Positions 10,176 through 52,140 of a DNA stretch of 64,000 nucleotides are shown here, in pieces; positions within the stretch are counted from its first letter, which is position 1, and the number at the start of each line of letters is the position of its first letter. A program made the translations under genes and the position numbers. The notes beneath the pieces were generated by a model that was given only the letters and a program-made list of their open reading frames with translations, was not told the origin of the DNA and made no database searches. Origin of the DNA: Spirochaetia bacterium (GTDB lineage Bacteria > Spirochaetota > Spirochaetia > UBA9216); assembly GCA_965140585.1 (NCBI GenBank), contig OZ223265.1, positions 192,001 to 256,000 of the forward strand, in the 5' to 3' direction.

Positions 10176-10246
10176 TAGGATTTATGCCAATTCTGTCGCT
10201 ATCCGATGAGCTTAAATCTTAGTATATTTACAACAAAGGAGCAACT

Positions 10247-11047: not shown

Positions 11048-11050
11048 ACC

Positions 11051-12512: not shown

Positions 12513-12555
12513 CCTATACTTTTTATGAGAATACTGTTAGAAAACTAATAAAGCT

Positions 12556-14226: not shown

Positions 14227-14233
14227 ATGATAT

Positions 14234-14269
14234 AAGACAGTAAAAACACCCGTTTTTACTGTCTTTTTT
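14234..14269. terminator. REP-like palindrome serving as terminator between the Na/Pi gene and argH
   Basis: AAGACAGTAAAAAC-ACCC-GTTTTTACTGTCTT plus T run; core shared with 12482-12505. Confidence 0.8.
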
Positions 14270-14272
14270 CTA

Positions 14273-35316: not shown

Positions 35317-36003
35317 TTACAGTCCTTCTCCGGCAAGCTCTCTCACAATTGATTCCGCAGAATCAAGACTACATCCGAAACGGCCGACTCCCAGCTCGAC
35401 CATTTTCTGAGCTGTTTTCATATCACGGACACCTCCGGCAGCTTTTATCCCGCACCCCGTCCCTTCGACGGCTTTTTTAATGATGCCGACGTTTTTAAAA
35501 TTTGCTCCCGTTTCTGCCCAGCCTGTCGCGGTTTTTACGAACCTTGCACCGCAGTCAGCAGCAATCTTTGATGCAGTAAATATTTCTTCATCAGTCAGGT
35601 GATGTACTTCCAATATGGTTTTTAAAATCCTTCCATTTGCAGCTTTGACCACAGCGCTAATATCATTTTCAAATTCCTTCAGCATTCCGGCCTTAAGCCA
35701 TGTGATATTTATAACCATATCAATCTCGCCGCAACCGGATTTAAGCAAATCTTCAGTTTCCCTGATTTTCATTGAAGTACTGGCACCTCCAGAAGGAAAC
35801 CCTACAGCTCCTCCAATGAAGGTTTTACTATTAGAGCCTAACATTGTTTTCAACAGCTCAATGTGCGCGGGCAAGCTATAGACTCCTGCAAATCCCCAGT
35901 TTTGAGCAAGGTCGACCATTCTTTTAAGTTCTGTAATAGATGATTCAGCCTTTACAACAGCCAAATCTGTTATTTTTGCAAAATTTTCTGTTGTGAGTTT
36001 CAT
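35317..36003 (-). CDS. deoC: deoxyribose-phosphate aldolase (DeoC-like class I aldolase)
   Basis: GFPSG, EIDMVIN, KTILE, FVKTATG (Schiff-base Lys), IKAAGG; ATG 36003 with GGAGG SD; N-terminus divergent. Confidence 0.82.
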   Translation of the reverse strand: MKLTTENFAKITDLAVVKAESSITELKRMVDLAQNWGFAGVYSLPAHIELLKTMLGSNSKTFIGGAVGFPSGGASTSMKIRETEDLLKSGCGEIDMVINITWLKAGMLKEFENDISAVVKAANGRILKTILEVHHLTDEEIFTASKIAADCGARFVKTATGWAETGANFKNVGIIKKAVEGTGCGIKAAGGVRDMKTAQKMVELGVGRFGCSLDSAESIVRELAGEGL

Positions 36004-36104
36004 TATTGCCTCCATATTTTCTATCTGTATTATTTTGAGACACCCACAAGACAGTTGTCAAGAATCAATTTCCGTTAAAAAATATATCATTGGAATTTTA
36101 TTGC

Positions 36105-36133
36105 TTGATATGTCTCATTTTTAGACATATGAT
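36105..36133 (+). promoter_or_regulatory. activator promoter with a palindromic operator filling the spacer
   Basis: TTGATA-[TGTCTCATTTTTAGACA]-TATGAT, with ATG 7 nt downstream. Confidence 0.75.
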
Positions 36134-36140
36134 GATTCAC

Positions 36141-38102
36141 ATGGATCCATTTGAAATATGGCGTAATTTTGCGGTTGATAAAACGACATCATCTCCGGAG
36201 AATATCAGAAATATTATATCGGACTCATGGGAACGCAGCAGGCGCTACGGAATAGATCCTCTTTTTTCCGGCATAAAAATGGTCAATGATGAAGAAATCG
36301 AAAAGCGCCGACTTAGGCGCACTGATTTATTGAAAGCAGCAATGCCCCATCTTCATAAACTTTATAAAATAATCAATAAAAGCCTTACTACAATAACTCT
36401 TTCAGATGAAGACGGGGTCATTCTTGAAGCGTTTTATAATGAAGAACTCGCCGGGATGAAAAATTTCCCGGCTGTAGGGTCTGTTCACTCCGAATCAGCA
36501 GTTGGAACCGGCGGTATAGGAATAGCTATAGCCACTGCCCAGCCTGTACAAGTAATAGGGGCAGAACACTGGTTGAAGGATAACCATCATTGGCACTGCA
36601 ATGCTGTCCCGATAAGCAGAAATGATGTTCTTATTGGAACTCTGAACCTATTATGCCCCATGGAAAATGGCCATGAACATTCACTGGGGATGGTTTCTGC
36701 AGCTGCATACGCTATCGAAAGAGAAATGGAGATGAACGTAATCCTTCGGGAGCATAAGAATCTGGCAAGCCTCCAGAAAACAGTTATCGAACTTCTGGAT
36801 ACCGGCCTGATAATTACCGACCGGAACTGCGTAATCACCCAGAACAATGGAAAGGCAGAGCAGATTCTTGAGCGTAGAGGTGACTGGTCAGGTCTGGATC
36901 TCTCATCTGTGATCACTACAAGCTATGATTTCAGAAGTGTTGTAAAAAACAAAATTCAACTTGATAATTACGAAATACCTGTAAAGATAGGAAACAGGCA
37001 TACATATCTAGGGTTTTCTACAGCTTTTATTGAGAATAATTCACAGACAGAAAGGATGGTTGTAAGAATCAGGGAGGCCCAGTCAATAAGGCATTTTGCC
37101 AATATTGCGGGAGGCTCCAAAGCTATTTATAATTTCGAAGATATAATCGGAGTTTCGAAACCCCTGGATAAATCGATGAAAATAGCCCATCTTGCCTCAA
37201 AAAATACAACAAACGTTCTAATCACCGGTGAAAGCGGAACCGGCAAAGAACTCATAGCACAATCCATACATAATGCCAGCAAGAGAAAAGATCACCCCTT
37301 TGTTGCAATAAACTGTGGCGCATTATCAAGGGAACTCATACAGTCTGAACTGTTCGGATATGAAGGGGGAGCTTTTACCGGAGCAAAAAAGAACGGCAAC
37401 CCGGGTAAATTTGAACTTGCAGACGGAGGAACTCTGTTCCTTGATGAAATTGGAGAGATGCCCCTTGATGCACAGACAAACCTGCTGAGAGTACTTCAAA
37501 CAGGCAACGTCCTTCGAATCGGGGCACGGCACCCAAACAAGGTTGATGTAAGAATAATTGCTGCTACAAACAAGAACCTGGAATGGGAGATAAGCCAGAA
37601 AAACTTCCGGAAAGATCTTTACTACCGTCTGAATGTACTTCAAATTGCATTGCCTCCGCTTAGGGAAAGAATATCGGATGTAGATATTCTTGCAGAATAC
37701 TTCCTTGAGCGGTTCACAAAGGAAATGAACTACACAATTGACGGTTTTACAGAAGAAGCAGCTGATGCTTTGAGAAAATACAGCTGGCCGGGAAATATCA
37801 GGGAGCTGGAAAATACAGTCGAACGCGCAGTTCTCATAACCCGGGATAATCAGATAACAGCTGCAGACCTCCCGGACTCAATAATTAAACAAACGGAAGA
37901 TACAGATTTACAAGTCTTCAGGGAGTCCTCAGCGGGAGGACATCCATCAAGTATAAGTGATATGGAGATTGAATATATTCGAGAGCTCCTGGTTGAACAT
38001 CATGGTAATTTACGTTCCGCTTCAACAGCTATGGGTGTAGCCCGAAGTACGCTTTATAACAAACTGAAAAAGTACAACCTGAATGCAGATGATTACAGGT
38101 GA
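36141..38102 (+). CDS. sigma54-dependent activator, GAF-PAS-AAA+-Fis (AcoR/DhaR-like)
   Basis: ISDSWERS GAF start, GESGTGKE, GAFTGA, LFLDEIGE, WPGNIREL, Fis HTH; start likely ATG 36141. Confidence 0.95.
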   Translation: MDPFEIWRNFAVDKTTSSPENIRNIISDSWERSRRYGIDPLFSGIKMVNDEEIEKRRLRRTDLLKAAMPHLHKLYKIINKSLTTITLSDEDGVILEAFYNEELAGMKNFPAVGSVHSESAVGTGGIGIAIATAQPVQVIGAEHWLKDNHHWHCNAVPISRNDVLIGTLNLLCPMENGHEHSLGMVSAAAYAIEREMEMNVILREHKNLASLQKTVIELLDTGLIITDRNCVITQNNGKAEQILERRGDWSGLDLSSVITTSYDFRSVVKNKIQLDNYEIPVKIGNRHTYLGFSTAFIENNSQTERMVVRIREAQSIRHFANIAGGSKAIYNFEDIIGVSKPLDKSMKIAHLASKNTTNVLITGESGTGKELIAQSIHNASKRKDHPFVAINCGALSRELIQSELFGYEGGAFTGAKKNGNPGKFELADGGTLFLDEIGEMPLDAQTNLLRVLQTGNVLRIGARHPNKVDVRIIAATNKNLEWEISQKNFRKDLYYRLNVLQIALPPLRERISDVDILAEYFLERFTKEMNYTIDGFTEEAADALRKYSWPGNIRELENTVERAVLITRDNQITAADLPDSIIKQTEDTDLQVFRESSAGGHPSSISDMEIEYIRELLVEHHGNLRSASTAMGVARSTLYNKLKKYNLNADDYR

Positions 38103-38117: not shown

Positions 38118-38255
38118 ACTACATGTCCGTAAGACATGTACAGACTACATGTCTTATATCGCTACACGCCTTCTACTGTATAGGAGTTATTTTTTAAATT
38201 ATTTGAACCTTTTAAGTTCAATTCCCTCATTTTAAAGATTGGCATGCTTTCTGCA
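38118..38255 (+). promoter_or_regulatory. sigma54 promoter with upstream activator sites
   Basis: TGGCATGCTTTCTGCA (GG 38241-38242, GC 38253-38254); TACATGTC-N5-GACATGTA at 38120-38140; TGTCTTATATCGCTACA at 38150-38166. Confidence 0.85.
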
Positions 38256-38306: not shown

Positions 38307-39323
38307 ATGAATTTAGTAAGGAGAATTGGAATTGGTGTACTGATGCTAATGATAGCAGGCACACTATTCGCTGCAGGACAGCAGGATGCATCAGGTCCAG
38401 CTGGAGAAAAACCATATGAAATCGCAGTTGTTATCAAAGCTACAGACTCAGATTTCTGGCAGTATCTGCTTGTTGGCGCTAAAAATTATGAAGCAGAGCA
38501 TCCTGATCTGGTAAAGGTCACAACCTACGGTCCGCCATCTGAAGCAGATATCGCTCAGCAGGTTGCTATCCTTGAAGATGTTATTTCCAAAAACCCCGAC
38601 GGAATAGTTATTGCTTCAACAAGTTCTGATGCTACTGTACCTGCACTCGAATCAGCTTATGACAAGGGAATTGCAATTGTCACAGTCGACAACAAAGTAA
38701 ACACGGACAAGGTTCACACCTTCCTGGCTACAGATAATCTGGTAGGCGGTGCAATGGCTGCAGAAAAGATGGTTGAGTATATGAAGAGCTCGGGTATTCC
38801 TCTCAAAGGCAAGGTTGGTGTAGTTAGCGCAATGGCAGGTATTCAGGTTCTTACGGATCGTGACAGCGGATTCGCCAACAGACTCAAGGAACTTGCACCG
38901 AATATCGAAATCCTTGAAACCAGATATGTTGACAACGACATTGTCAAAGCACTGGGTGTAACTGAAGACCTTATCACCACCAATGGTGATGAGCTTATCG
39001 GTATTTTTGCTGACAACAACCATACAGCTGACGGTGTTGCAAGAGCTATCGGTGAACAGGGACTCAAAGATAAGGTAATCGTAACAGGCTATGATTCAGA
39101 CCCAGAAGAAGTTGCAGCAATTAAATCAGGCGTTCTAAAAGCTATCATGGTCCAGGACCCATATGGAATGGGATACAAGGGAGTAGATTCAGCAGTAACA
39201 ATTATTGAAGGCGGTTCACTTCCATCATTCGTAGATACCGGGGTTGTCGGTGTTGAAAAGAGTAATGTTAACGATGCTGATATACAGGGCCTCCTTGATC
39301 CTTATTCAATGAAAAAATACTAA
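38307..39323 (+). CDS. sugar ABC transporter substrate-binding protein (RbsB-like)
   Basis: FAAGQQD signal, ATDN..GG, GYD, VQDPYGMGY; ATG 38307 with AGGAGG SD. Confidence 0.93.
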   Translation: MNLVRRIGIGVLMLMIAGTLFAAGQQDASGPAGEKPYEIAVVIKATDSDFWQYLLVGAKNYEAEHPDLVKVTTYGPPSEADIAQQVAILEDVISKNPDGIVIASTSSDATVPALESAYDKGIAIVTVDNKVNTDKVHTFLATDNLVGGAMAAEKMVEYMKSSGIPLKGKVGVVSAMAGIQVLTDRDSGFANRLKELAPNIEILETRYVDNDIVKALGVTEDLITTNGDELIGIFADNNHTADGVARAIGEQGLKDKVIVTGYDSDPEEVAAIKSGVLKAIMVQDPYGMGYKGVDSAVTIIEGGSLPSFVDTGVVGVEKSNVNDADIQGLLDPYSMKKY

Positions 39324-39384: not shown

Positions 39385-40878
39385 TTGAGCGAAACAGCAT
39401 TTATTGAGCTGAATCAGATAGTTAAAAATTTCCCCGGTGTTAAAGCACTTAACGGGGTTGGTTTTTCAGTTTATCCAGGCGAGGTTCATGGATTGGTCGG
39501 GGAAAATGGAGCTGGAAAATCAACAATTATCAAAATACTTATGGGCGTACACCAGAAAGATGAAGGCTCGATAAAAATAAACGGGGAAGATGTCACTATA
39601 GAAAACACTATAAAGGCTGGGAAACTCGGACTTTCAGCCGTTTACCAGGATCTGAACCTTGCTCTTGATCTGAGTATAGGTGAAAATTTCTTCATTGGTA
39701 ATCTTCCAAGAAAAAAAACAGGTTTAATCGATTGGAAGCATATCTATGAAGAAACTGAAAAGACACTCAGGGAACTGAAGATTACAGTTAATCCCAAAAG
39801 CAAAATTTCCGAGCTTTCACCGGCTATGCAGGAGATGGTCGCCATTGCAAAGACTGTTCATCTGAATGCCAAACTTGTAGTTTTTGATGAACCTACAGCG
39901 TTGCTGACCAATGATGAAGTGGATATTCTCTTCAACATCATCAATACCCTCAAAGAAAAAAACGTTGCCATAATCTATATATCACACCGTCTGGAAGAAA
40001 TTTTTCGTATCTGTGAAACTGTTACAATTTTCAAAGACGGTGAAAAAATCGACAGCCTTAAAGTAAGTGAGACAAATGAGGAAGAGCTGATCAACAAGAT
40101 GGTCGGAAGGAATATCAGCGAAATGTACGCCATCGAACACCAGCCCCCCGGACGAGAACTTCTTACAGTAAAAAATATCACAAGTAAAGGAAAATTCCGT
40201 GATATCAGTTTCAGCGTAAGATCCGGTGAGATTTTTGGTTTTTTCGGTCTTGTAGGTTCAGGACGAACAGAGATCGTAAGATCCCTGTTTGGAGCGGATC
40301 CACTGGACAGTGGAGAAATCCTTCTTGACGGTAAAGAATACAAACCCAGAAACCCAATTGACGGTATAAAAAATGGGATCGGCCTACTTCCGGAAAACAG
40401 AAAAGAGGAAGGACTGGCTCTTGGACTATCGGTAAAGCATAATATCAACCTTTCATCCTACATGGATATCAACAAGTTGGGTTTTGTAAAAAGTAAGATA
40501 GAAAACGAACGAGCGAATCTCTATATAGATAAAATGAATATCAAGACACCTTCCAACAACCAGATTGTAGGAAATCTATCGGGAGGAAACCAGCAGAAGG
40601 TTGTAATCGGAAAGTGGCTATGCAATGACAGCAGCATTCTTATTTTTGATGAACCTACTGTAGGCATTGACGTAGGGGCAAAACGGGAGATTTTCAAACT
40701 GATGGAAGAGCTTGCCTCATATGGAAAAGCAATAGTACTGATCTCATCCTACCTGCCTGAAGTAATGGGACTCTCCGACAGAATTGCAGTCATCTATGAG
40801 GGAAATCTTTCAGCTGTAGTCGAAAGAAAAGATTTTGACGAGGAACTAATACTTAAACATGCCTCAGGCATAAATTGA
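39385..40878 (+). CDS. sugar ABC transporter ATPase (CUT2, RbsA-like)
   Basis: GENGAGKST, two DEPT motifs, LSGGNQQK. Confidence 0.96.
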   Translation: MSETAFIELNQIVKNFPGVKALNGVGFSVYPGEVHGLVGENGAGKSTIIKILMGVHQKDEGSIKINGEDVTIENTIKAGKLGLSAVYQDLNLALDLSIGENFFIGNLPRKKTGLIDWKHIYEETEKTLRELKITVNPKSKISELSPAMQEMVAIAKTVHLNAKLVVFDEPTALLTNDEVDILFNIINTLKEKNVAIIYISHRLEEIFRICETVTIFKDGEKIDSLKVSETNEEELINKMVGRNISEMYAIEHQPPGRELLTVKNITSKGKFRDISFSVRSGEIFGFFGLVGSGRTEIVRSLFGADPLDSGEILLDGKEYKPRNPIDGIKNGIGLLPENRKEEGLALGLSVKHNINLSSYMDINKLGFVKSKIENERANLYIDKMNIKTPSNNQIVGNLSGGNQQKVVIGKWLCNDSSILIFDEPTVGIDVGAKREIFKLMEELASYGKAIVLISSYLPEVMGLSDRIAVIYEGNLSAVVERKDFDEELILKHASGIN

Positions 40879-40889
40879 AGGAGAGTGCA

Positions 40890-41843
40890 GTGAAAAAACT
40901 GATAGAAAAATTCAAAAACGGTAAAATTGCGGAAGGAAACCTTATACTGATCCTACTGGCAGTAATTATCCTGCTGGCAATATTTTCACCTACTTTTTTA
41001 ACAACCAATAATATTAAAAACCTGGTTAGACAGACTTCAATAATCGGGATAGTAGCCATAGGCATGACTTTTGTAATTATTTCAGGCGGTATTGACCTTT
41101 CTGTAGGCTCCATACTTGGAGTTTCAAGCATAATAAGCGCAATGATGATGGCAAACGGCACATCGATATTTACTGCAGTCATTGTTTCAATACTTGCCTG
41201 CACGATGCTCGGAATAATTAATGGAGTAATCGTTTTTGACGGTAAAGTACCACCCTTCATAGCCACCCTTGGAATGATGACAGCCGCAAGAGGTATTGTA
41301 ATGCTGATGTCGGGGGCCAGAATGATTGCTGGACTGCCGCGAAGCTTCTCAAGATTCGCACAGCTGAATATAGCGGGGATGCCGTCACTTTTCTTTGTGT
41401 GGCTTCTGGTGATTATAGCAACCTATATAATCACTTCACGCACAGTTACTGGCCGCAATCTTTTTGCATTCGGCTCAAACCCCGAAGCGGCCCGTCTGTC
41501 CGGAATAAACATCAGAATGCTTACATACTTTATCTATGGTATCTCAGGATTCATGTGTTCCATAGCTGGGATACTGATGACCTCGAGGCTGTCAAATGGT
41601 ATACCGACCGCAGGTACCGGCTATGAACTTGATGCCATAGCTGCTGCGGTAGTAGGAGGAGCTTCACTGAACGGAGGATCAGGGACGATTCTGGGAACAG
41701 TTCTCGGTGCCCTGCTTATAGCAATAATTAAAAACGGCGGAAACCTACTCGGAATAAATCCCTTCATTCTCCAGATAGCAGTCGGATTTTTAATTGTAGT
41801 ATCTGTAATGATTGACCAGAAAAGAAAGGCATCAGGAAAATAA
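40890..41843 (+). CDS. sugar ABC transporter permease (RbsC-like)
   Basis: GGIDLSVG, PPFIATLG, GSNPEAARLSGI, YELDAIAA; GTG 40890 after AAGGAG. Confidence 0.95.
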   Translation: MKKLIEKFKNGKIAEGNLILILLAVIILLAIFSPTFLTTNNIKNLVRQTSIIGIVAIGMTFVIISGGIDLSVGSILGVSSIISAMMMANGTSIFTAVIVSILACTMLGIINGVIVFDGKVPPFIATLGMMTAARGIVMLMSGARMIAGLPRSFSRFAQLNIAGMPSLFFVWLLVIIATYIITSRTVTGRNLFAFGSNPEAARLSGINIRMLTYFIYGISGFMCSIAGILMTSRLSNGIPTAGTGYELDAIAAAVVGGASLNGGSGTILGTVLGALLIAIIKNGGNLLGINPFILQIAVGFLIVVSVMIDQKRKASGK

Positions 41844-41861: not shown

Positions 41862-43364
41862 ATGGGCAAATACATACTGGCACATGATCTTGGCACATCC
41901 GGGAATAAGGCAACACTGTTCAACGAAGACGGACAAATGATTAGCAGCTGTACAGTCCCTTATAATACAGAATATTTTAATGGCAATTGGGCAGAACAGA
42001 ATCCTGAAGACTGGTGGCAGGCTGTATGCAGCTCATCCCGCAGAGTACTTGCAGATATTGATTCGACGAAACTTGGCGCTGTTTCATTCAGCGGCCAGAT
42101 GATGGCTTGTATCTGCGTAAATAAAAAAGGCGAGGCAATCAGGAACGCTCTCATCTATTGCGATCAGAGGTCTGAAAAACAGGCAGAAGAGCTAATCTCA
42201 AAGGTAGGCTTCCGCAGAATTTACGATATTACAGGTCATAGACCCAGTTCGTCATACAGCCTCACAAAGCTGCTCTGGATTAAGGAATTCGAACCGGACA
42301 TTTACAATAATACATATAGAATGCTTCAGGCAAAAGACTACATGAATTTCAAGCTTACCGGAAATTATTTCACCGATTTTTGTGATGCAAGCGGAACAAA
42401 TGCCTTTTCCCTGAAAGATCTTACCTGGTCTGCTGAAATAGTTGAAGCTTCCGGCATCAGGCATGAACTGCTTCCGGAAACAGTAGCCTCAACTACAATC
42501 ATTGGTGAAGTTACCAAAGAAGCCTTTGAAGCTACAGGGATTCCAGCAGGAACCCCTGTTACAGCAGGGGCCGGGGACGGAGGATGCGCAACTCTTGGTG
42601 CCGGATCTTATGAGCCGGGAATGGCATACTGCTACATGGGTTCATCATCATGGGTTTCAGTTACATCGAATGCCCCTCTAGGCGATGATGAAATGAAAAC
42701 ATTCACCTGGGCTCATCCGATAGAAGGACTTTATCAGCCATGTGGTACAATGCAGACTGCAGGGAGTTCAATCAGCTGGTACAGCGAGCTTATGAATGGC
42801 AGCATTTCAGGGGAAGTTCTTGAAGAAATGAACAGTCTGGCTTTAGACGGCCCGGCAGGTTCCGGCGGAGTTTTCTATCTGCCCTACCTTCTCGGCGAAC
42901 GTTCTCCATGGTGGGATCCTAACGCAAAGGGCGGTTTTATCGGGCTGAATCTGAATACGGAGCGTAAACACATGGCCAGATCCGTATTTGAAGGAATTGC
43001 CATGAATCTGAATGAATCTCTTAAGATTATGAAGGAAAGTTCAGGATTCGACAGCATAAGCTTTATCGGCGGTGGTGCAAACGGAAGGGCTCTGAGACAG
43101 ATTTTTTCAGACACCTTCGGTGTTCAGATCAACATCCCCAAGCTGTTGTCAGAAGCAACAAGCATGGGTGCCGCATTGCTTGGAGGTGTTGGAACCGGAA
43201 TCTACAAGGATTTCAGTATCGTCGAAAAAATGAATCCATATGTTGAGACAATTGAACCTGATATGAAAAAATATGATTTTTACAAGGATCATAGTAAAAT
43301 ATTCAACAAATTATATAAGAACCTTAAGAGTTCTTTCAGTGACATTGCGAAGGCAGGATATTGA
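41862..43364 (+). CDS. FGGY carbohydrate kinase (xylulokinase-like)
   Basis: HDLGTS, SGQM, DQR, GAGDG, PYLLGERSP, IGGGA, EATSMGAA. Confidence 0.93.
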   Translation: MGKYILAHDLGTSGNKATLFNEDGQMISSCTVPYNTEYFNGNWAEQNPEDWWQAVCSSSRRVLADIDSTKLGAVSFSGQMMACICVNKKGEAIRNALIYCDQRSEKQAEELISKVGFRRIYDITGHRPSSSYSLTKLLWIKEFEPDIYNNTYRMLQAKDYMNFKLTGNYFTDFCDASGTNAFSLKDLTWSAEIVEASGIRHELLPETVASTTIIGEVTKEAFEATGIPAGTPVTAGAGDGGCATLGAGSYEPGMAYCYMGSSSWVSVTSNAPLGDDEMKTFTWAHPIEGLYQPCGTMQTAGSSISWYSELMNGSISGEVLEEMNSLALDGPAGSGGVFYLPYLLGERSPWWDPNAKGGFIGLNLNTERKHMARSVFEGIAMNLNESLKIMKESSGFDSISFIGGGANGRALRQIFSDTFGVQINIPKLLSEATSMGAALLGGVGTGIYKDFSIVEKMNPYVETIEPDMKKYDFYKDHSKIFNKLYKNLKSSFSDIAKAGY

Positions 43365-44899
43365 GTATGAAATCAGATCTGATTCTTTCCCACAACCTGG
43401 GAACCACCGGAAACCTGGCGGTATTGTATGACAGCAATGGAACAATACTGAAATCATGGTTTTCGGGTTATCAGACTGAATACAGACATGGTAACAAGGT
43501 AGAACAGGACGCGAATGACTGGTGGAATGCGGTCTGTGAATCGACTCTCGGAGTTCTGCGAGGAATAAATGAAAGGTCGATAAATTCCGTTTGTTTCAGC
43601 GGTCAGATGATGGGCTGCCTTTGCATTGACAAGGACGGATATCCGCTGGCCAACTCAATAATATGGGCTGACATGAGGGCCGAAAAAGAAGCAGCAAAAC
43701 TTAACGATGATATTGACGAAACAAAATTCTACCATATCACCGGACACAGAATAAGCCCCTCCTACTCTCTCGCAAAACTCATGTGGATTAAGAGGAATAA
43801 TCCGGAAATATACAAAAGAACCTCAAAAGTTATTCAGGCAAAAGACTACATTGTTTATAAACTTACCGGAAAGATATTAACTGACTACTCTGATGCATCC
43901 GGTACGAATATGTTCGATCTCGGCAACTTTGAGTGGTCAGATACAATCCTTTCAATCGCAGGAATAAACAGGGAACTTCTTCCCGAAGCTGTTGCATCTA
44001 CAACTGTAGCCGGTGAAGTTACAATTGAAGCTGCTGCAGAAACCGGACTGCTCCCCGGAACGCCAGTGGTAATAGGGGCCGGAGACGGACTATGCTCAAA
44101 CATAAGCTCCGGATGTACTGAAGCGGATGAAGCATTCATGTATTTTGGATCATCTGCCTGGATAGGACTGACAAAAGATGAACCGTATTACGACAGCGAA
44201 TTAAGAACTTTTAACTGGGCTCATGTTCAAAAGGGAAAAAGCATGCCATGCGGGACAATGCAGGCTGCAGGAAATACTGTTAACTGGCTGAACAAGGAAA
44301 TTGCTCGAATAGAAAGTATTCAGGCCGAAAGGCAGCAAGTTCACATCAATAATCTGATCGACCAGGAAATTCAAAACTCAAATCCTGGTGCAAACGGTAT
44401 GCTCTTCCTGCCTTATCTAAGCGGAGAACGAAGCCCGCACTGGAATCCGGATGCCGCCGGTGTTATTCTTGGGCTTAAAATGGATCACACAAGAAGTGAC
44501 TTTTTCAGAGCATCAATCGAGGGAATTGCATTGAATCTCAAATTGATCTGGGATTCCCTTGGAGAGCAGATCTCATGCAGGGAACTTGTACTTGTTGGAG
44601 GCCTTTCATTGAGTCCTGTAAAAAAACAGATTCTTTCTGACGTCCTGGATGTGATTGTTGTCAACAACAATCACTCCCGTGATTCCAAACCATTCGGGGC
44701 TGCTGTAATTGGAGGCCTTGGTACTGGAATATTTTACAACCTTCAAGATGCCGGGCGTATTATAAAAAAAATTGATCCTGTACACCCTGATCCTGCCAGA
44801 GTTGCTCTATATAAAAAATTACTGCCGGTATTCAAGGAAGGTTATGAAAATCTCAAACCTACTTTCAAAAATCTTAGTTATCTGGACGGAGGAAAATAA
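43361..44899 (+). CDS. second FGGY kinase paralogue with degenerate ATP motifs (possible pseudokinase)
   Basis: Clearly paralogous to the upstream kinase, but HNLGTT, VGGLS and DSKPFGAA replace the conserved motifs. Confidence 0.85.
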   Translation: MSMKSDLILSHNLGTTGNLAVLYDSNGTILKSWFSGYQTEYRHGNKVEQDANDWWNAVCESTLGVLRGINERSINSVCFSGQMMGCLCIDKDGYPLANSIIWADMRAEKEAAKLNDDIDETKFYHITGHRISPSYSLAKLMWIKRNNPEIYKRTSKVIQAKDYIVYKLTGKILTDYSDASGTNMFDLGNFEWSDTILSIAGINRELLPEAVASTTVAGEVTIEAAAETGLLPGTPVVIGAGDGLCSNISSGCTEADEAFMYFGSSAWIGLTKDEPYYDSELRTFNWAHVQKGKSMPCGTMQAAGNTVNWLNKEIARIESIQAERQQVHINNLIDQEIQNSNPGANGMLFLPYLSGERSPHWNPDAAGVILGLKMDHTRSDFFRASIEGIALNLKLIWDSLGEQISCRELVLVGGLSLSPVKKQILSDVLDVIVVNNNHSRDSKPFGAAVIGGLGTGIFYNLQDAGRIIKKIDPVHPDPARVALYKKLLPVFKEGYENLKPTFKNLSYLDGGK

Positions 44900-45289
44900 A
44901 TGGAAAAATTAATACAGCATCTGTTTTCAATAGGAGCAGAAGATTATTTTCGAAAAATGAATCTTTCAGTAGATGAATTATTTTCAAACAGTCTTATAAA
45001 ATCAAACCCCTATTCTGAACACAACTGGGAAATCAGAGAAAATGATCAATTTACTATTGTAAACGCGGTTCCTGACATACAACTTCAGGACAGATTATTC
45101 TGGGAGGAATGGTACATTTTCAACACTGTAGAGATCCATCATCACATACTCTCACTATGGAAGCCCAAATCCTACGACGAAATATTTGAATGTCCAAAAT
45201 CCGATGAAATACATCCGGCTCTGACTTTTGGAAAACGCTGGTATGTTATTGATGATCCGGATATGACTCCCTGGCTGCTCAGGAGGTAA
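44900..45289 (+). CDS. hypothetical protein (129 aa, Trp/His-rich)
   Basis: Starts right after the upstream stop (TAA-ATG) with GGAGG SD; fills the operon gap exactly. Confidence 0.75.
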   Translation: MEKLIQHLFSIGAEDYFRKMNLSVDELFSNSLIKSNPYSEHNWEIRENDQFTIVNAVPDIQLQDRLFWEEWYIFNTVEIHHHILSLWKPKSYDEIFECPKSDEIHPALTFGKRWYVIDDPDMTPWLLRR

Positions 45290-45292
45290 AAA

Positions 45293-46294
45293 ATGAAATA
45301 CGGCTATTTCGGCTCAACCGGTCTCAGGATGAGCAGGATTGCATTCGGAGTTCAAACTTTCGGATGGAGTGTTGAGGATAAAGATGCTTTTAATATGCTC
45401 GACTACTATCATGACCAGGGCGGCAACTACATTGATATTGCCGATTCATACAATAATGGGAGGGCAGAGGAAATTACCGGTAGTTGGTTAAAAAACAATC
45501 CGAGTCGTGAAGACATCATCGTCGGAACAAAGGTTTTTTTTCCAACCGGATCCGGTGAAAACCAGAGAGGACTGAGCCGTAAACATATCATACAGTCAGT
45601 TGAAACAAGCCTAAAACGTCTGAACACTGATTACATCGATTTATACCAGCTCCACTGCTTTGACAGGATGACTCCGATAGAAGAAATCACAAATACTATG
45701 AACATCCTGATAAATACAGGTAAGATTAGGCATTACGGTCTGTCAAATTATACAGCATCAGCAATAACAGAGAACATCTACACGGCATCAGATGCGGGGT
45801 TGATTAAACCGTCTTCGGTTCAGCTTGAATACAGCCTGCTGGTACGCAGCAGTGAATGGGAACTGATTCCTGTTTGCAGCAGATACCACCTGGGAATTCT
45901 TGCATGGTCCCCTCTCTCAGGCGGATGGCTAACCGGAAAATACCGTAGAAACAAAAATCTGCCGGAGGACAGCCGGGCAGGAATCGGCGATCGCTGGGAT
46001 GATAATGAAGAACAGCGCGGGGGCAGCAAGACCTTTGATATCATTGAGAAACTGATAAACATCTCCGCTGAGCTGCAATGTACCCCCTCCCAGCTCAGCC
46101 TGGCATGGATGCTGAACAGGAAGGAAGAAGTGTTCCCATTGATTGGAGCGAGAACTACCGAGCAGCTCTGCGGCAATCTGAAGGCTGTTGATATTGAACT
46201 CACAGATGGACATATAGCAGAACTTAACAGTATTTCAGCTGTTGATGCTCCTTATCCATACAATTTTATAAGCAGGTACACACGGCATGAATAA
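45293..46294 (+). CDS. aldo/keto reductase
   Basis: DIADSY, GTK, SLKRLNTDYIDLYQLH, WSPLSGG. Confidence 0.93.
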   Translation: MKYGYFGSTGLRMSRIAFGVQTFGWSVEDKDAFNMLDYYHDQGGNYIDIADSYNNGRAEEITGSWLKNNPSREDIIVGTKVFFPTGSGENQRGLSRKHIIQSVETSLKRLNTDYIDLYQLHCFDRMTPIEEITNTMNILINTGKIRHYGLSNYTASAITENIYTASDAGLIKPSSVQLEYSLLVRSSEWELIPVCSRYHLGILAWSPLSGGWLTGKYRRNKNLPEDSRAGIGDRWDDNEEQRGGSKTFDIIEKLINISAELQCTPSQLSLAWMLNRKEEVFPLIGARTTEQLCGNLKAVDIELTDGHIAELNSISAVDAPYPYNFISRYTRHE

Positions 46295-47219
46295 AAATGG
46301 AAAAATTACAGTCTTGGGAAGTTTTGTTGTTGATTTAATGGGAAGAGCTAACCACCTACCGCTTCCCGGAGAAACAGTGCTTGGAAGCACATTTAAGATG
46401 GGCCCCGGCGGAAAGGGTTCAAACCAGGCGTCAGCAGCTCACCGGGCTGGGGGAAGTACAGCCTTCATCACCAAGCTTGGAACAGACCTTTTCAGCAATG
46501 TAGCTAAAGATTTCTACCGGGAAGAGAAAATGGTAACAGATTATCTTCTTACTGACGAAGTTCTCCCAACAGGAACGGCACTGATACTGGTCGATGAAGA
46601 AACATCCCAGAACAGTATAATTGTAATACCTGGTGCCTGTATGAACATCACCAAAACGGATCTTGAAACAGTCTCCCCCGCACTTGTCGAAGCGTCAATC
46701 CTTCTCTGCCAGCTTGAAACCAATCTTGATATCCTGAAGCCGGCAGTCGAGACTTTTAGAAACGGCGAGACACCCTGTAAAACTGCAATACTGAATCCGG
46801 CTCCCGCCCGGGAACTTCCTGCAGATCTGATTTCACTTTTTGATATTGTTACTCCAAATGAAGTAGAGGCATCTATTCTTACCGGAGTTGAGGTCACAGA
46901 CTTCAAAACAGCAGAAAACGCTGCAGATGTATTTCTGAAAATGGGCATTCAAACTGCAGTGATAACTATGGGCAGCCGAGGCCTTCTGATAAAAAACGAG
47001 GATGTTGAAATTATACCACCGTTCGAAGTGAATGCTTTGGATACAACAGGCGCTGGTGATGCATTCAACGGCGGTTTTGCAGCTGCTCTATCATGGGGAT
47101 GGCCCATTTCTGATGCAGCACGTTTCGGCGCCGCTACTGCCGCATTATCTGTAACAAAGATAGGGACAGCCCCGGCAATGCCTTACAAGGCGGAGATAGA
47201 AGAACTTCTTGCAAAATAA
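46287..47219 (+). CDS. rbsK: ribokinase (PfkB family)
   Basis: PGETV, GGKGSNQA, QLE, NPAP, PNEVEA, DTTGAGDAF; exact pentose specificity uncertain. Confidence 0.88.
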   Translation: MNKNGKITVLGSFVVDLMGRANHLPLPGETVLGSTFKMGPGGKGSNQASAAHRAGGSTAFITKLGTDLFSNVAKDFYREEKMVTDYLLTDEVLPTGTALILVDEETSQNSIIVIPGACMNITKTDLETVSPALVEASILLCQLETNLDILKPAVETFRNGETPCKTAILNPAPARELPADLISLFDIVTPNEVEASILTGVEVTDFKTAENAADVFLKMGIQTAVITMGSRGLLIKNEDVEIIPPFEVNALDTTGAGDAFNGGFAAALSWGWPISDAARFGAATAALSVTKIGTAPAMPYKAEIEELLAK

Positions 47220-47221: not shown

Positions 47222-48022
47222 CTATTCAGTTTCGGAGGCGACCAGGGTATTTATTTCCAGACTCTCATAGAGATTTCTTATATCTTCAGAGATTGTATCC
47301 GTTATGAGCAGATCAATCTGTTCAGGTGTTGCGAAATTAATAAATGAATCGGTTTCAATCTTGGTACTATCACAGAGAAGAATAACCTTGGAAGATATTC
47401 CGATCATTTGACGCTTTATTTCAGACTGACCGATATCAGGAGTACTTGCCCCCTTTCTTGCCGAGAACGAATTGGCTCCTAAAAAGGCCTTATCAACAGA
47501 GATCTTTCTCAGGTCGGTAAAAACATCATTGTTTACCGTACAATGAAAACCTTTTCTCAGCAGTCCGCCGACCATATAAACATCACAGCCCGGTGCCTCT
47601 TCCAACTCTGCCGCAACCTTGATATCATTTGTTACAACAGAAATATTATTTTTATATTTAAGAAGGATAGCCAGTTCCTTAATTGTTGTACCGGTATCAA
47701 GTATTATAGTATCACCGTCATCAATTTCCTCAAGAGCAGCCCGGGCAATCATCCTTTTGGCGTTCAAGTTTTTATCAGCCCTGAAGTCCATAACCGGTTC
47801 ATAACCTGTACGACTCCGTCTGATTGCACCACCGTGAGTTCTAGTAATCTGACCGGATTTACCAAGCTCTCTGAGGTCGTTACGCATGGTAGCCCCTGAA
47901 ACGGAAAAAAATTCACAGAGTTCAGGAACTGTTACTCTACGTTTTTCATTAATATAATCAACAATCCGCTTCTTCCGCTCTTCTGCAAAAAGAGTTTTAT
48001 CTGCTGTGTTCATGTCTGTCAT
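47222..48022 (-). CDS. DeoR/GlpR-family transcriptional regulator
   Basis: VSGATMRNDL..RTHGGA HTH; LDTGTT sensor domain. Confidence 0.95.
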   Translation of the reverse strand: MTDMNTADKTLFAEERKKRIVDYINEKRRVTVPELCEFFSVSGATMRNDLRELGKSGQITRTHGGAIRRSRTGYEPVMDFRADKNLNAKRMIARAALEEIDDGDTIILDTGTTIKELAILLKYKNNISVVTNDIKVAAELEEAPGCDVYMVGGLLRKGFHCTVNNDVFTDLRKISVDKAFLGANSFSARKGASTPDIGQSEIKRQMIGISSKVILLCDSTKIETDSFINFATPEQIDLLITDTISEDIRNLYESLEINTLVASETE

Positions 48023-48024
48023 AA

Positions 48025-48879
48025 TTACAACCTGCCTAAAGAATACCTGATTCCGGTTTCAGCAGGATTTATCCTGCCGCCAAGACCACTTTCACTGACC
48101 ACTGATTCGATTGACTCTCTTGAAACCGTATTAAATTCAAACATTCCGAAATGATGAGGAACAGCATACTTTATATCATGTTTCCTCACTATCCGGCAAA
48201 CCTCACTGATGTTAAAATTGCCCAGGATACCCTTTGAACTAAGTTCTTCACGACGTCCGTTCACCGGCATTAGGGCAAGGTCTATCTCATAGGGCTCAAG
48301 CCAATTGTCCAGTTCCGGATAAGGAATGCAATCACCTGAATGATAAATTGTATACGGGCCGAACTCAAGAATAAATCCAAGAAAAAAATAATTACCACTG
48401 CTGTCTCGATCAAGAGTTTCATGAGCAGCCGGAATCGCATGAATAAACAGGCTGGATCCGGCTTCAAATTTTCTACCGGCATCTATAGCTGTAATTTTCC
48501 CTTCGGGAACGCCCCTCTGGGCGGCAATTTCTCTGACAGCTTCAGGGACAACAAACCTGCATGAAGGGCTCAGACTGCTTAGAACAGGTATTAATCCCGG
48601 ATCCATGTGATCAGAATGTGAATGAGAGCAAAGGCAATAATCAATATCAGTAAGTTCATACATGGAAATTGGAGGAGGCATCATTCTCTCATGGGGAAAT
48701 TCAGTCCCCTTGTACTTAACCGAAAGAAAATCTGAGAGGTAAGGATCTATTAAAAATTTAAGGTTTCCGATACAGATAAGAAACCCTGCCTGCCCCAGCC
48801 ACCAGAAATTCAAATCATCGTTAACCGTCTTCCGGTAGAATGAAATATCCTGTTTTACTTGTTTTAGGGTCTTGTTCAT
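48025..48879 (-). CDS. MBL-fold metallohydrolase (UlaG-like lactonase)
   Basis: WWLGQAGF, IDPYLS, SHSHSDHMD, YHSGD, PVNG, PHHF. Confidence 0.88.
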   Translation of the reverse strand: MNKTLKQVKQDISFYRKTVNDDLNFWWLGQAGFLICIGNLKFLIDPYLSDFLSVKYKGTEFPHERMMPPPISMYELTDIDYCLCSHSHSDHMDPGLIPVLSSLSPSCRFVVPEAVREIAAQRGVPEGKITAIDAGRKFEAGSSLFIHAIPAAHETLDRDSSGNYFFLGFILEFGPYTIYHSGDCIPYPELDNWLEPYEIDLALMPVNGRREELSSKGILGNFNISEVCRIVRKHDIKYAVPHHFGMFEFNTVSRESIESVVSESGLGGRINPAETGIRYSLGRL

Positions 48880-48886
48880 ACACAGT

Positions 48887-49507
48887 CTATTTTATCATAT
48901 TTTTAGCTGCTGCGCTGAGTTCTGAAATCTTTTCAAATTGTCCGGCTTTGATATAGTCCGGTTTCACCATCCAGCTTCCGCCACAGGCGCACACATTTGA
49001 AAGCGCCAGATAGTCAGTAAAATTTTCTTCATTCAATCCGCCTGTCGGCATAAACTCAGCACTGTATACACTGGCAAATGTTTTCAGCATCGGTATTCCA
49101 CCTGAAAGAGCTGCAGGAAAGAATTTCAAAACCTTCAGACCTGCATGCATAGCCACCTCAATCTGGGAGGGGTTTGTAACACCAGGAATTACGGGAATTC
49201 CCTTTCTTATACAGGCTTCTACAATTGCCGGATTATAGCCGGGTGCAACAATAAATTCCGCACCTGCCTCTACCGCAGCATCAAGCTGCTCAAGAGTCAG
49301 TACTGTTCCCGCTCCGAGCAGAAGTTCAGGCATGTTATTTTTTATACTCCTGATTGAGGCTGCAGCGGCATCTGTCCTGAATGTAATTTCAGCAATATTA
49401 ATTCCGCCAGCTGAAAGAGCCCGAGCAAGCGGCAGTGCGTCGGACGGATTTTCAAGTTTAATTACTGGTACAAGTTTTTCTTCCTTCAATCGGTTAAAAA
49501 TATCCAA
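48887..49507 (-). CDS. eda: KDPG/KHG aldolase
   Basis: EITFRT, GAGTVL, KFFPA (Schiff-base Lys), PTGG, GGSW; TTG start with AGGAG SD. Confidence 0.95.
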   Translation of the reverse strand: MDIFNRLKEEKLVPVIKLENPSDALPLARALSAGGINIAEITFRTDAAAASIRSIKNNMPELLLGAGTVLTLEQLDAAVEAGAEFIVAPGYNPAIVEACIRKGIPVIPGVTNPSQIEVAMHAGLKVLKFFPAALSGGIPMLKTFASVYSAEFMPTGGLNEENFTDYLALSNVCACGGSWMVKPDYIKAGQFEKISELSAAAKNMIK

Positions 49508-49540
49508 GTTTAACTCCTGTCATATAATTTTATATAAAAC

Positions 49541-49639
49541 ACGATATGTAATTTGTTATCATTTGTCAAGCTTTGTTTATCATTTAATATTGACATCTAA
49601 CAAACTGCAGGCTAATATAACAACATATCATTATCATTT
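49541..49639. promoter_or_regulatory. divergent sigma70 promoters with repeated TTATCATTT operator
   Basis: Minus TTGACA(49564-49569)-N17-TATCGT; plus TTGACA(49590-49595)-N17-TAATAT; TTATCATTT at 49556, 49577 and 49631. Confidence 0.75.
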
Positions 49640-49669
49640 GTTGTTATTTAACAATTTCAGGAGAATTGA

Positions 49670-50620
49670 ATGAACAGATATATACCTGCTGAAGAAAGAA
49701 CAATGTATTTTATCGGTGTCACGACCGGAAAATCATCAATTATGAAAGTCTTTCCCAGATGGGCGGAACATCTTGGATTGAATGCTGTCATAAAAGGCTT
49801 CGATTTCACGCCTCACTCAAGTCCGGCTCTTTACAGGGAAGCAGTTGAATTCATTAAACATGATAAATTATCTCTGGGCGCGCTGGTAACAACACACAAG
49901 CTTGATCTGATGAAGGCCTGTGGAGATCTTTTTGAAGGCAAAGGAGAATACACCCGTCTCATTGATGAAGCCAGCTCAATTTCAAAACGCGGTACTGAAT
50001 TATGGGCACATGCAAAAGACCCTATAACCAGCGGTCTTTCCCTTGAAGCTATTGCATCAGATGAATACTGGAAAAATACAGGAGTAGAACTGATGCTTAT
50101 TGGAGCAGGAGGCTCTTCACTTGCTTTGAGTCTGTATTTGATAAATAAGCTTAAATCCGGCGGAAGGCTGCCGAAAAAAATTATTATTACCAACCGTTCA
50201 GAAACAAGATTGAACGAAATGAAGCAGATTCATAAAAAACTGAATACCGAAGCACCCTTTGAATATCATCTCTGCCCTTCCGCATCGGACAATGACAAAA
50301 TTGTTTCACAGTTGAGTCAGGGGGCATTGATAGCCAATGCAACTGGTCTGGGGAAGGATATGCCAGGGTCTCCTCTGACTGATAAAGTTGTATTTCCCGA
50401 GAACGGTATTATATGGGATTTCAACTACAGAGGAGAACTCATATTCCTGGAGCAGGCTTCAAAACAGCAGAAAAGTAAGAACTTAAGAATAGAGGATGGA
50501 TGGTTCTACTTCATTCATGGATGGACAAGGGTAATAGCAGAAGTCTTTCATATTGATATACCGACAAGCGGACCTGAATTTGAAAAACTTTCAGAAATAG
50601 CCGCATCTACAAGGAGTTAA
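49670..50620 (+). CDS. shikimate dehydrogenase-like NAD(P)-dependent oxidoreductase
   Basis: LVTTHK (Lys), AKDP (Asp), GAGG, TNRS, NATGLG, WDFNY, EDGW; N-terminus unlike AroE. Confidence 0.8.
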   Translation: MNRYIPAEERTMYFIGVTTGKSSIMKVFPRWAEHLGLNAVIKGFDFTPHSSPALYREAVEFIKHDKLSLGALVTTHKLDLMKACGDLFEGKGEYTRLIDEASSISKRGTELWAHAKDPITSGLSLEAIASDEYWKNTGVELMLIGAGGSSLALSLYLINKLKSGGRLPKKIIITNRSETRLNEMKQIHKKLNTEAPFEYHLCPSASDNDKIVSQLSQGALIANATGLGKDMPGSPLTDKVVFPENGIIWDFNYRGELIFLEQASKQQKSKNLRIEDGWFYFIHGWTRVIAEVFHIDIPTSGPEFEKLSEIAASTRS

Positions 50621-50623
50621 ATA

Positions 50624-51205
50624 ATGGATATACCTTTTTTTATTGAAAAACCAACCTACTTCGATCCTGAAACAGGATTAACCGACAGCATTCCGGCACT
50701 TGAAAGAAGATACTCTGATATGAAAAACATGTATCACGATGAGGCTGCCAGAACTGCACTTGAAGAAAACGGTAATAACCTGGTTTACCGGTTTTATGAT
50801 TTCGGGGTTCAGGAAAAAGCAGGGGATCTGTGTTTTGGAACAAGCATTGTCTACCCCGGCAAGGTTGGAAATGAATACAATATGACAAACGGTCACTTTC
50901 ACACAATTATCGACACAGCCGAAATCTACTACTGCCAGGCCGGTTATGGAATGATGATGATGGAAAGTCCTGAAGGCGATATCATGTACAAAGAAATGCG
51001 CCCCGGACAGGCTGTTTATGTACCCGGGAGATATGCACACAGAAGCATCAATCTGTCTGATACAGAAACCCTTATCACATTTTATGTATTCAGGGCTGAT
51101 GCGGGTCATGATTACGGCGCCATTAAAGAAAAAGGCTTCAGAAAACTTGTTGTTGAAGAAGAAGGAAACTGGAAAGTAATTGATAACCCAAAATGGACTG
51201 AATAA
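50624..51205 (+). CDS. cupin-type (archaeal PgiA-like) sugar-phosphate isomerase
   Basis: PGKVGNEYNMTNGHFH, AEIY, YVPGRYAHRSIN, AGHDY. Confidence 0.88.
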   Translation: MDIPFFIEKPTYFDPETGLTDSIPALERRYSDMKNMYHDEAARTALEENGNNLVYRFYDFGVQEKAGDLCFGTSIVYPGKVGNEYNMTNGHFHTIIDTAEIYYCQAGYGMMMMESPEGDIMYKEMRPGQAVYVPGRYAHRSINLSDTETLITFYVFRADAGHDYGAIKEKGFRKLVVEEEGNWKVIDNPKWTE

Positions 51206-51207
51206 AA

Positions 51208-52140
51208 ATGCAGAAAAATAAAGGAAAGATTCTTGTTACCCCCCGCTCTCTGAGCAAGAGCGGGCATCCTTTTCTGGACAAATTCAGGGAAGCCGGCTAT
51301 GAAGTAATTATGCCGTTTCCCGGTGTACAGCCTTCAACTGAGGAACTATCATCAGTTCTTCCGGAATGTGTAGGGTACCTTGCCGGAGTAGAAAAAGTCA
51401 GCGCAGCAGTCCTAAAGAAATGCGAAAAACTGCGTGTAATAAGCCGAAACGGTGTCGGTATTGATAATGTTGATGCAAAGGCAGCCGGTGAAATGGGGAT
51501 ATCGCTGCAGGTTGCAAGGGGTGCTAATTCCAGAGGAGTTGCAGAACTTGCTATTACACTCATGCTGACACTGTTACGCGATATTTCATCAACAAACAGT
51601 TCAGTAAAAAACGGCGGATGGCATAGAACAAAAGGCTTTGAAGTTGAGGGAAAAAGACTTGGTATTATCGGGACGGGTCAGATAGGCCAGTTCACCGCCA
51701 AGCTTGCTTCAGGTCTGGATATGAAGATTATTGCATATGATCCATACCCAAACCCTGAGCTGCCGGAAAGGATTCCCGGATTCTGCTATGAATCAATTGA
51801 GGTGCTTTTAAGCTCAAGTGATGTTATCAGCCTTCATTGTCCTGCAGGTTCGAGTCCGCTTATAAATTCAGAAACTCTCAGTTTATGCAGAAAAGGTACT
51901 TATCTTGTAAATACAGCACGCTCTGCTCTGATTAATGAGGACGCCCTGCTTTCAGCACTGGAGAAGGGGATCATAGCCGGATATGCGGTTGATGCCTTTG
52001 ACACTGAACCGCCTGAATTATCTCCCCTCCTAAAACATGAAAAAGTAATCCTTACATCACATATAGGCGGGTTCACTGCCGAGAGCGTCGACAGAGCCAC
52101 TGAGGCTGCTGTAAAAAATCTTCTCGATAATCTTGGTTAG
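51208..52140 (+). CDS. D-isomer-specific 2-hydroxyacid dehydrogenase (SerA-like, no ACT domain)
   Basis: SRNGVGIDN, GTGQIG, NTARS, DAFDTEP, TSHIGG. Confidence 0.92.
   Translation: MQKNKGKILVTPRSLSKSGHPFLDKFREAGYEVIMPFPGVQPSTEELSSVLPECVGYLAGVEKVSAAVLKKCEKLRVISRNGVGIDNVDAKAAGEMGISLQVARGANSRGVAELAITLMLTLLRDISSTNSSVKNGGWHRTKGFEVEGKRLGIIGTGQIGQFTAKLASGLDMKIIAYDPYPNPELPERIPGFCYESIEVLLSSSDVISLHCPAGSSPLINSETLSLCRKGTYLVNTARSALINEDALLSALEKGIIAGYAVDAFDTEPPELSPLLKHEKVILTSHIGGFTAESVDRATEAAVKNLLDNLG

Follow-up and report, generated by a model that had tools for sequence, protein, structure and literature searches.

The window analysed here is a stretch of 64,000 nucleotides from the genome of a marine spirochaete (Spirochaetia bacterium, assembly GCA_965140585.1, contig OZ223265.1, positions 192,001 to 256,000). 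It carries a sugar operon in which two adjacent genes, hereafter referred to as K1 and K2, encode proteins of the FGGY carbohydrate kinase family. The genes follow one another in the order sigma54-dependent activator, periplasmic sugar-binding protein, ATPase and permease of an ATP-binding cassette (ABC) transporter, K1, K2, a protein of 129 amino acids (aa), aldo-keto reductase and ribokinase. An earlier note, made from the letters of the window, had described K1 and K2 as neighbouring FGGY paralogues, the second with a full reading frame and altered nucleotide-binding motifs, and the gene positions given there hold. Both proteins match the two Pfam domains of the family, FGGY_N and FGGY_C, and are 41% identical to each other. 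K1 is a canonical kinase of the xylulokinase type, with every motif canonical in the alignment and a score of 384.8 bits against the TIGR01312 (XylB) model, above the cut-off of 380.25, whereas K2 scores 343.8 bits and falls below this equivalog threshold. K2 is FGGY from end to end, with no extra domain (E-values of 1.2e-61 for FGGY_N and 1.6e-27 for FGGY_C). Its AlphaFold 2 (AF2) model has the two-domain fold of the FGGY family and of the wider acetate and sugar kinase/Hsc70/actin (ASKHA) superfamily, with a predicted local distance difference test score (pLDDT) of 90.6. The best match to this model in PDB, as found by Foldseek, is the Lactobacillus acidophilus xylulokinase 3LL3 (template modelling score 0.89, root-mean-square deviation 2.5, 501 columns). 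The listed frame of K2 opens on a TTG codon; since an ATG at 43367 is preceded 8 nt upstream by AGGA and the identical database protein (P0001) has 510 aa, the true start is probably 43367.

The residues of K2 were compared in an alignment of 26 proteins of the K2 clade with 241 other FGGY proteins. The latter comprise 136 full-length representatives from an exhaustive library search, 94 close canonical matches and 11 K1-type or other neighbours; the 105 close canonical relatives that figure in the residue counts below stand apart from the 136 diverse representatives. The principal difference lies in the phosphate-1 motif, which reads HDLGTSGNK in K1 and HNLGTTGNL in K2, the codon at 43394-43396 being AAC, so that the replacement of Asp by Asn pointed out in the earlier note is read directly from the DNA. 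At this column Asp is found in 132 of the 136 representatives (the others being two gaps, one Gln and one Glu) and in all 105 close canonical relatives, but in none of the 26 proteins of the K2 clade, of which 24 carry Asn and two Ser, a distribution far removed from chance. Among the 120 proteins listed in the search with K2, the K2 type is represented by the 25 closest (P0001-P0025) and P0059 (24 with Asn, one with Ser and one truncated at the N-terminus), and the other 94 all have Asp; an additional member with Ser was found in another Spirochaetia genome, G662. Only two columns in which the background shows a fixation of 85% or more are switched in the K2 clade, namely column 12 (Asp to Asn or Ser) and column 256 (Gly to Asp, Glu or Lys), the latter situated just ahead of the phosphate-2 strand.

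Further changes are found on the same side of the active site. The phosphate-1 Lys (Lys19), present in 126 of the 136 representatives and 105 of 105 close relatives, is kept in 14 of the 26 members of the K2 clade and replaced by Leu or Met in ten; the larger subclade retains Lys, and the subclade of the window carries Leu or Met, with Leu in the window's own copy. The connect-2 segment reads LSEATSMGAA in K1 and SRDSKPFGAA in K2, which bears out the change from EATSMG to DSKPFG seen previously and extends it to the entire clade, where the conserved EEATS has given way to an equally conserved R/K-D-S-K-N/S motif (Asp441 and Lys443 in 26/26, Ser442 in 24/26). The adenosine segment, for which a change from IGGGA to VGGLS had also been noted, does differ between K1 (IGGGANG) and K2 (VGGLSLS). 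As evidence of loss the point is weak, since GGxxxS is the norm for the family, with Ser in 94 of the 136 representatives; GGL and GGM are also read in close canonical kinases, and the solved kinase 3gbt has GGFLKS. In the adenosine loop, position 417 is Lys or Arg in 89 of the 136 representatives, and neither is any longer among the common residues in the K2 clade.

The sugar side, by comparison, is retained. The motifs SGQMM, D-x-R, GAGDG, GSSxW, PCGTMQ and GERSP, the preservation of which had been claimed for K2, are all present in it and are invariant or nearly so within its clade, and the catalytic-base Asp242 of the G-x-G-D motif is found in 26/26 members. As far as can be read from the alignment, K2 is thus a protein of the kinase family with an intact sugar side, in which the metal- and phosphate-binding side appears in part eroded and in part rebuilt. 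According to PMC4880283, the activity of the FGGY kinase SePSK falls strongly in the mutants D8A, T11A and D221A, and the corresponding mutations in the xylulokinase and the glycerol kinase of Escherichia coli greatly reduce the activity of those enzymes. Taken together with these mutants, the loss of Asp suggests that K2 has lost kinase activity, and we consider it probable that it has no physiologically relevant activity of this kind.

That K2 is still an enzyme, with Asn or Ser in place of Asp, rebuilt handling of metal and phosphate and the new Lys443 and Arg/Lys440 in its cleft, is the alternative to be weighed most carefully, even if we regard it as unlikely. Such an enzyme might have a further substrate, possibly an anionic one (a sugar acid or a sugar phosphate), or use the nucleotide differently. 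It would account for the catalytic-base Asp, for the phosphate-1 and phosphate-2 glycine loops, both invariant in the clade, for the exchange of connect-2 for another conserved motif and for the Lys of phosphate-1 in the larger subclade, and it would agree with an adenosine motif that is normal in active kinases. Moreover, Asn is the phosphate-1 residue of the acetate and propionate kinases, whose substrates are carboxylates. Against it stands the fact that not one of the 241 background proteins has Asn or Ser at this column. Lys19 is missing in the subclade of the window and K/R417 in the clade, Ser, which two members carry, is a poor metal ligand, and sugar-pocket motifs that are the same as those of K1 do not suggest a different class of substrate. 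The lowered activity upon mutation of Asp in three FGGY kinases (PMC4880283) argues in the same direction.

The evolutionary behaviour of the clade is that of a maintained protein. A quick LG+G4 tree of 73 rows recovers K2 as a monophyletic clade with a support of 99 in the Shimodaira-Hasegawa-like approximate likelihood ratio test (SH-aLRT), and K1 likewise (99), and the branch lengths of K2 resemble those of K1. The clade spans identities down to 48%, and K2 is 46-49% identical to clostridial proteins named xylulokinase by their sources; the K1 and K2 clades are not sisters to the exclusion of these clostridial xylulokinases. The rate of non-synonymous substitution (dN) within the family is 0.20-0.27 for K2, 0.26-0.29 for K1 and 0.23-0.28 for the aldo-keto reductase, and across families 0.36-0.44 for K2 as against 0.32-0.37 for K1. 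Overall column entropy is 1.12 bits in the K2 clade and 1.04 bits in a canonical set of similar diversity; relative to this set, the phosphate-1 hairpin and the adenosine segments are more variable in the K2 clade (by +0.26 to +0.52 bits), and the surroundings of phosphate-2 and residues 196-240 are tighter. K2 therefore combines the two marks of a pseudoenzyme, a catalytic residue lost throughout the clade and purifying selection comparable to that on its functional neighbours, in agreement with its earlier description as an intact pseudokinase.

A sequencing error or the early decay of the gene, for which a difference in a single codon and nothing beyond it could be adduced, was rejected and has a negligible probability. 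The same change is found throughout the 26-member clade, down to its most divergent members, the frame is intact, dN does not exceed that of the neighbouring genes and the AF2 model is a confident one.

K2 is rare. It was found in six of 401 sampled genomes of the class Spirochaetia and, in addition, in G662 (G000 designates the window's genome, other G numbers further genomes of Spirochaetia and L numbers individual loci). One protein of the K2 clade is ascribed by its source to Parasphaerochaeta coccoides. Across a phylum-wide set of 401 genomes, the 400 besides the window's genome yielded no orthologue of K2, and no K2-type protein is listed in the representative library, the best match there being canonical and 45% identical. 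A contig scan with K2 alone returned 80 loci, two of them true orthologues, and a metagenome scan with the clade alignment, which shares patterns with canonical kinases, gave one clear K2 locus (L135) among the matches listed. The gene order of the operon recurs in G404, G406, G410 and G630, and also in G487, whose contig breaks off at the permease gene. The metagenome fragment L135 holds K2, the 129-aa protein and the reductase, and G662 has a reduced form with the activator, the ABC transporter, a K1-like gene, a K2-like gene (with Ser) and a shorter reductase.

The pairing of K2 with K1 is strict. K1 lies directly upstream of K2 in 7/7 flanked loci (G000, G404, G406, G410, G487, G630 and G662), and in five of these the two genes overlap or lie no more than 3 nt apart. 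Orthologues of K1 with more than 60% identity were found solely in genomes with an adjoining K2, and its relatives at 53-57% stand alone, including a third copy in the window's genome (contig C1, 462296-463825). The congener G401, with a genome 99% complete, yielded neither K2, K1, the 129-aa gene, the activator nor the remainder of the operon, so that the operon is seen to move or to be lost as a unit. Strict co-inheritance and tight gene spacing suggest that K1 and K2 may associate physically.

The features of the locus are listed in Table 1. The listed reading frame of the sugar-binding protein starts at 38244, within the sigma54 promoter, and its likely start is the ATG behind an AGGAGG at the position given in the table.

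Table 1. Genes and regulatory features of the K1-K2 locus, in window coordinates
Feature	Position	Strand	Basis or remark
DeoC-type aldolase, divergent from the activator gene	35317..36015	-	TIGR00126
Sigma54-dependent activator (GAF, PAS-like region, AAA+, HTH)	36090..38102	+	Pfam Sigma54_activat, AAA_lid_14, HTH_8, GAF
Three ACATGTC / GACATGT half-sites forming two overlapping inverted repeats; putative activator binding site	38121..38154	.	Sequence reading and regular expression
Sigma54 -24/-12 promoter, TGGCATGCTTTCTGCA	38240..38255	+	Sequence pattern
Periplasmic sugar-binding protein, ribose/allose type	38308..39323	+	Pfam Peripla_BP_4; NCBIfam D-allose and RbsB models below cut-off
ABC transporter ATPase	39385..40878	+	Pfam/NCBIfam
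ABC transporter permease	40875..41843	+	Pfam/NCBIfam
K1, canonical FGGY kinase, xylulokinase type	41862..43364	+	500 aa
K2, FGGY paralogue with Asn for the phosphate-1 Asp	43361..44899	+	512 aa from TTG
129-aa protein, no known family	44900..45289	+	Begins one base past the K2 stop
Aldo-keto reductase	45293..46294	+	Pfam Aldo_ket_red
PfkB-family ribokinase	46287..47219	+	TIGR02152, 305.9 bits, cut-off 299.65

The DeoC-type aldolase occupies the same position in G404 and G406, and G662 has a weaker DeoC-like gene close by. Downstream of the operon (47222-52140), a second cluster, of sugar-acid type, encodes on the minus strand a DeoR regulator, a hydrolase of the metallo-beta-lactamase fold and a 2-keto-3-deoxy-6-phosphogluconate (KDPG) aldolase, and on the plus strand a cupin-type glucose-6-phosphate isomerase (PF06560) followed by a D-2-hydroxyacid dehydrogenase.

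A TGGCAY-N5-YTGCW site is present upstream of the gene for the binding protein in 6/6 orthologous loci, and rpoN is present in the window's genome. The three ACATGTC half-sites, 85-120 bp upstream of the window's sigma54 promoter, are likely to constitute the binding site of the activator; a regular-expression search of the orthologous loci returned one or two exact half-sites in G404, G630 and G662, and none in G406 and G410. In the genome as a whole, FGGY_N is matched 19 times and the AAA+ domain of the sigma54 activator has at least 20 BLAST hits, which suggests a sugar specialist relying heavily on sigma54 control.

The earlier note had proposed that K2 controls the neighbouring activator or forms a heterodimer with K1, and had looked to orthologues for retention of the changed residue under purifying selection and for co-occurrence with the activator. 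Both are found, the Asp being lost clade-wide (24 Asn, two Ser) and the activator being present in 6/6 K1-K2 loci with enough upstream flank. K2 could be pictured as a sugar sensor reporting to the activator, in the manner of the dihydroxyacetone kinase systems DhaK/DhaL-DhaR and DhaQ-DhaS. The N-terminal 347 aa of the activator have one strong match in NCBIfam, the DhaR model (82.9 bits, E-value 1.5e-23); the remaining three rows have E-values of 3e-4 or weaker and the PAS matches are weak (0.05-0.1). K2 also lies inside an operon that would be driven by this activator from the conserved sigma54 promoter, an arrangement known from the Dha systems.

The relatives of the activator speak against this picture. 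Among the 401 genomes of the class, the closest homologues outside the K1-K2 loci are a protein of G612 (50% identity) and a second copy in G662 (45.5%), and each stands first in an operon that encodes aldo-keto reductases, a transporter or a KDPG-type aldolase and lacks any FGGY gene. Both are closer to the activator of the window than are its K2-linked counterparts in G630 (41%) and G662 (35%). A tree of the activators places the proteins of the two FGGY-free operons inside the K2-linked group (support 89/94), and the K2-linked activators form one exclusive clade in 0/200 bootstrap trees, which is not the pattern of a regulator tied to the paralogue. This type of activator therefore does not need K2; its sensor domain appears to work without it, probably on a small molecule, and the proposed control of the activator by K2 is not upheld. 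The FGGY-free operons of the activator thus lower the standing of the co-regulator reading, and we hold signalling to the activator to be quite improbable. A complex prediction of K2 against residues 1-340 of the activator and the 129-aa protein gave 0.00 in both runs, which counts neither way.

In the FGGY-free loci L237 (G612, 5069-15608) and L238 (G662, 1181-4420), the activator homologues stand beside aldo-keto reductases 49-54% identical to that of the window. The conserved pairing may thus be that of activator and reductase rather than of activator and kinase.

The 129-aa protein, encoded immediately downstream of K2, has no Pfam or NCBIfam match. It had 15 homologues in a first search, and FWEEW, HH, H-P and FGK-W-V-DD are its strongly conserved residues. 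Its AF2 model is confident (pLDDT 94), and no Foldseek match was obtained at an E-value of 0.001 or below, the best VIA-align Z being 4.3 and the best ESM Atlas score 0.78. Members of the family occur in 25 of the 401 Spirochaetia genomes, always near sugar-metabolism genes; elsewhere they lie beside canonical FGGY kinases, an aldo-keto reductase or a transporter of the major facilitator superfamily, or after a sugar-acid dehydratase operon. As the family is far wider than K2, it is not a partner specific to K2. Most likely it is a small sugar-pathway enzyme or accessory protein in its own right and not a subunit devoted to K2, and it may represent a new fold among small enzymes of sugar pathways.

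A canonical FGGY kinase and a 129-aa homologue form an isolated two-gene unit in the metagenome loci L155 (9959-11989), L145 and L147 (both 9998-11955), amid the housekeeping genes for tyrosyl-tRNA synthetase, a penicillin-binding protein, 2-oxoacid dehydrogenase E2 and RNase Y. In G404 (L133, 5668-5988) the homologue is displaced from K2, and its match to the profile is split into two parts (1-99 and 95-128), pointing to a frameshift or to a mistake in the assembly.

The genes downstream of K2 allow one more alternative to be considered, that K2 is a ligand-binding protein acting apart from K1, which might hold a ketose or its phosphate, or hand it on to either the reductase or the 129-aa protein, or else buffer a reactive intermediate. 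The 129-aa gene abuts or overlaps the stop codon of K2 in four of the seven K1-K2 genome loci and in the fragment L135, all K1-K2 loci with downstream flank, the reduced one of G662 among them, carry an aldo-keto reductase, and the sugar pocket is intact. The wider distribution and varied contexts of the 129-aa family argue against such a role, as does G662, in which K1 and a K2-like gene are found with no 129-aa gene in the locus; altogether we judge it improbable.

In three genomes of the sister genus, an open reading frame of 342 aa lies beside the reductase or ribokinase gene of the operon (L133 6063-7091, L134 6875-7903, L130 2261-3289). The L133 copy, which was scanned, is a zinc alcohol dehydrogenase, and the gene is lacking in the window's operon. 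The resulting set of reductase, dehydrogenase and kinase in the sister genus resembles the fungal-type oxidoreductive pentose route. The operon suggests an oxidoreductive sugar route, unusual in bacteria, in which an aldo-keto reductase (with a zinc alcohol dehydrogenase in the three relatives) is followed by a kinase.

The best explanation of K2, put forward tentatively, is that it is a conserved sugar-binding pseudokinase of the xylulokinase branch which acts as the non-catalytic partner of K1. K2 would be catalytically disabled, or nearly so, having lost the magnesium-binding Asp of phosphate-1 (and, in the window's subclade, the Lys as well) and having gained a fixed connect-2 motif rich in Lys and Arg (R/K-D-S-K), with the fold, the sugar pocket, the catalytic-base Asp and the glycine-rich phosphate loops preserved. 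The two proteins would be made from one sigma54-dependent transcript, with K2 directly downstream, from genes that appear to be inherited as a pair only. K2 would then partner K1 at the ketose phosphorylation step of the pathway formed by the ABC transporter, the aldo-keto reductase and the kinase, binding the same or a related ketose, and perhaps a nucleotide, and modulating or stabilising K1 rather than signalling to the activator. That K2 binds sugar at all is suggested by the preservation of its sugar-side motifs.

Several observations weigh against such a non-catalytic role. Gly14, Thr15, Gly17, Gly263, Ser265 and Gly413 of the phosphate loops are invariant in the K2 clade and the new connect-2 motif is conserved as strongly as the old one, so that the site looks re-tuned and not abandoned; since Asn occupies the phosphate-1 position in acetate kinases, members of the wider superfamily, phosphoryl transfer could persist with this residue. 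K1 and K2 do not stem from a recent duplication, each being about as close to the clostridial xylulokinases as to the other. FGGY homodimers have already been solved as structures, and the distance between K1 and K2 means that heteromerisation is no simple carry-over from a homodimer. The loss of Asp was probably a single event and all genomes with K2 belong to the Spirochaetia, so that the 26 sequences are not independent. The rate of synonymous substitution (dS) is saturated in nearly all pairs, and omega (dN/dS) could be computed for a few, where it is 0.04-0.11.

A bolder proposal, which we rate as a long shot, makes K2 the first sugar sensor with an FGGY fold. Its remodelled cleft (Asn12, Arg/Lys440, Lys443) would hold the ketose of the pathway or its phosphate without turnover, and another protein would then sense whether K2 is open or closed. 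That protein could be K1, for a substrate-dependent control of flux, or the DhaR-like domain of the activator, in which case K2 would be an FGGY counterpart of DhaQ and DhaK/DhaL.

FGGY kinases are among the commonest sugar kinases, and annotation pipelines call nearly all of them xylulokinase or carbohydrate kinase. The K2 clade would be mis-annotated under the same names despite the absence of a nearly universal Asp. In full-text literature searches, no paper describing a non-catalytic FGGY protein was found. K1 and K2 offer a clean natural pair, probably co-transcribed and both predicted to fold well, from a marine spirochaete that is not a pathogen, in which it may be asked why an apparently dead sugar kinase is kept.

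The closest known counterpart of K2 is XylB itself (TIGR01312; structures 3LL3 and 2ITM), with which it shares the two-domain FGGY fold, both Pfam domains, the SGQM and D-x-R motifs, the GxGD base and the phosphate-2 loop. It differs from XylB in the Asn or Ser for the phosphate-1 Asp, in R/K-D-S-K-N/S for EEATS and in the loss of K/R417 and, in the window's subclade, of Lys19; of the two paralogues, K1 alone passes the XylB model. Sugar kinases of the ASKHA superfamily have been turned into sensors in the ROK repressors Mlc, NagC and XylR. These resemble K2 as kinase scaffolds kept for sugar recognition after catalysis was lost, but carry a DNA-binding domain of their own, for which K2 has no equivalent. 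Transcription control by kinase-family proteins is known from DhaK/DhaL with DhaR in E. coli and from DhaQ with DhaS in Lactococcus lactis, where DhaQ is an inactive kinase paralogue that still binds its ligand. The window shares with these systems a kinase-family protein encoded in an operon that it perhaps regulates and, in its activator, a DhaR-like sensor half; it differs from them in that the Dha proteins have the DAK fold and K2 the FGGY fold, and in that relatives of its activator run FGGY-free operons. Within the FGGY family, a parallel is provided by AtXK-1 and SePSK, members whose assigned role as kinases is likewise doubtful but which, unlike K2, keep the Asp, hydrolyse ATP, fall in the ribulokinase-like branch and lack an active paralogue as partner (PMC4880283).

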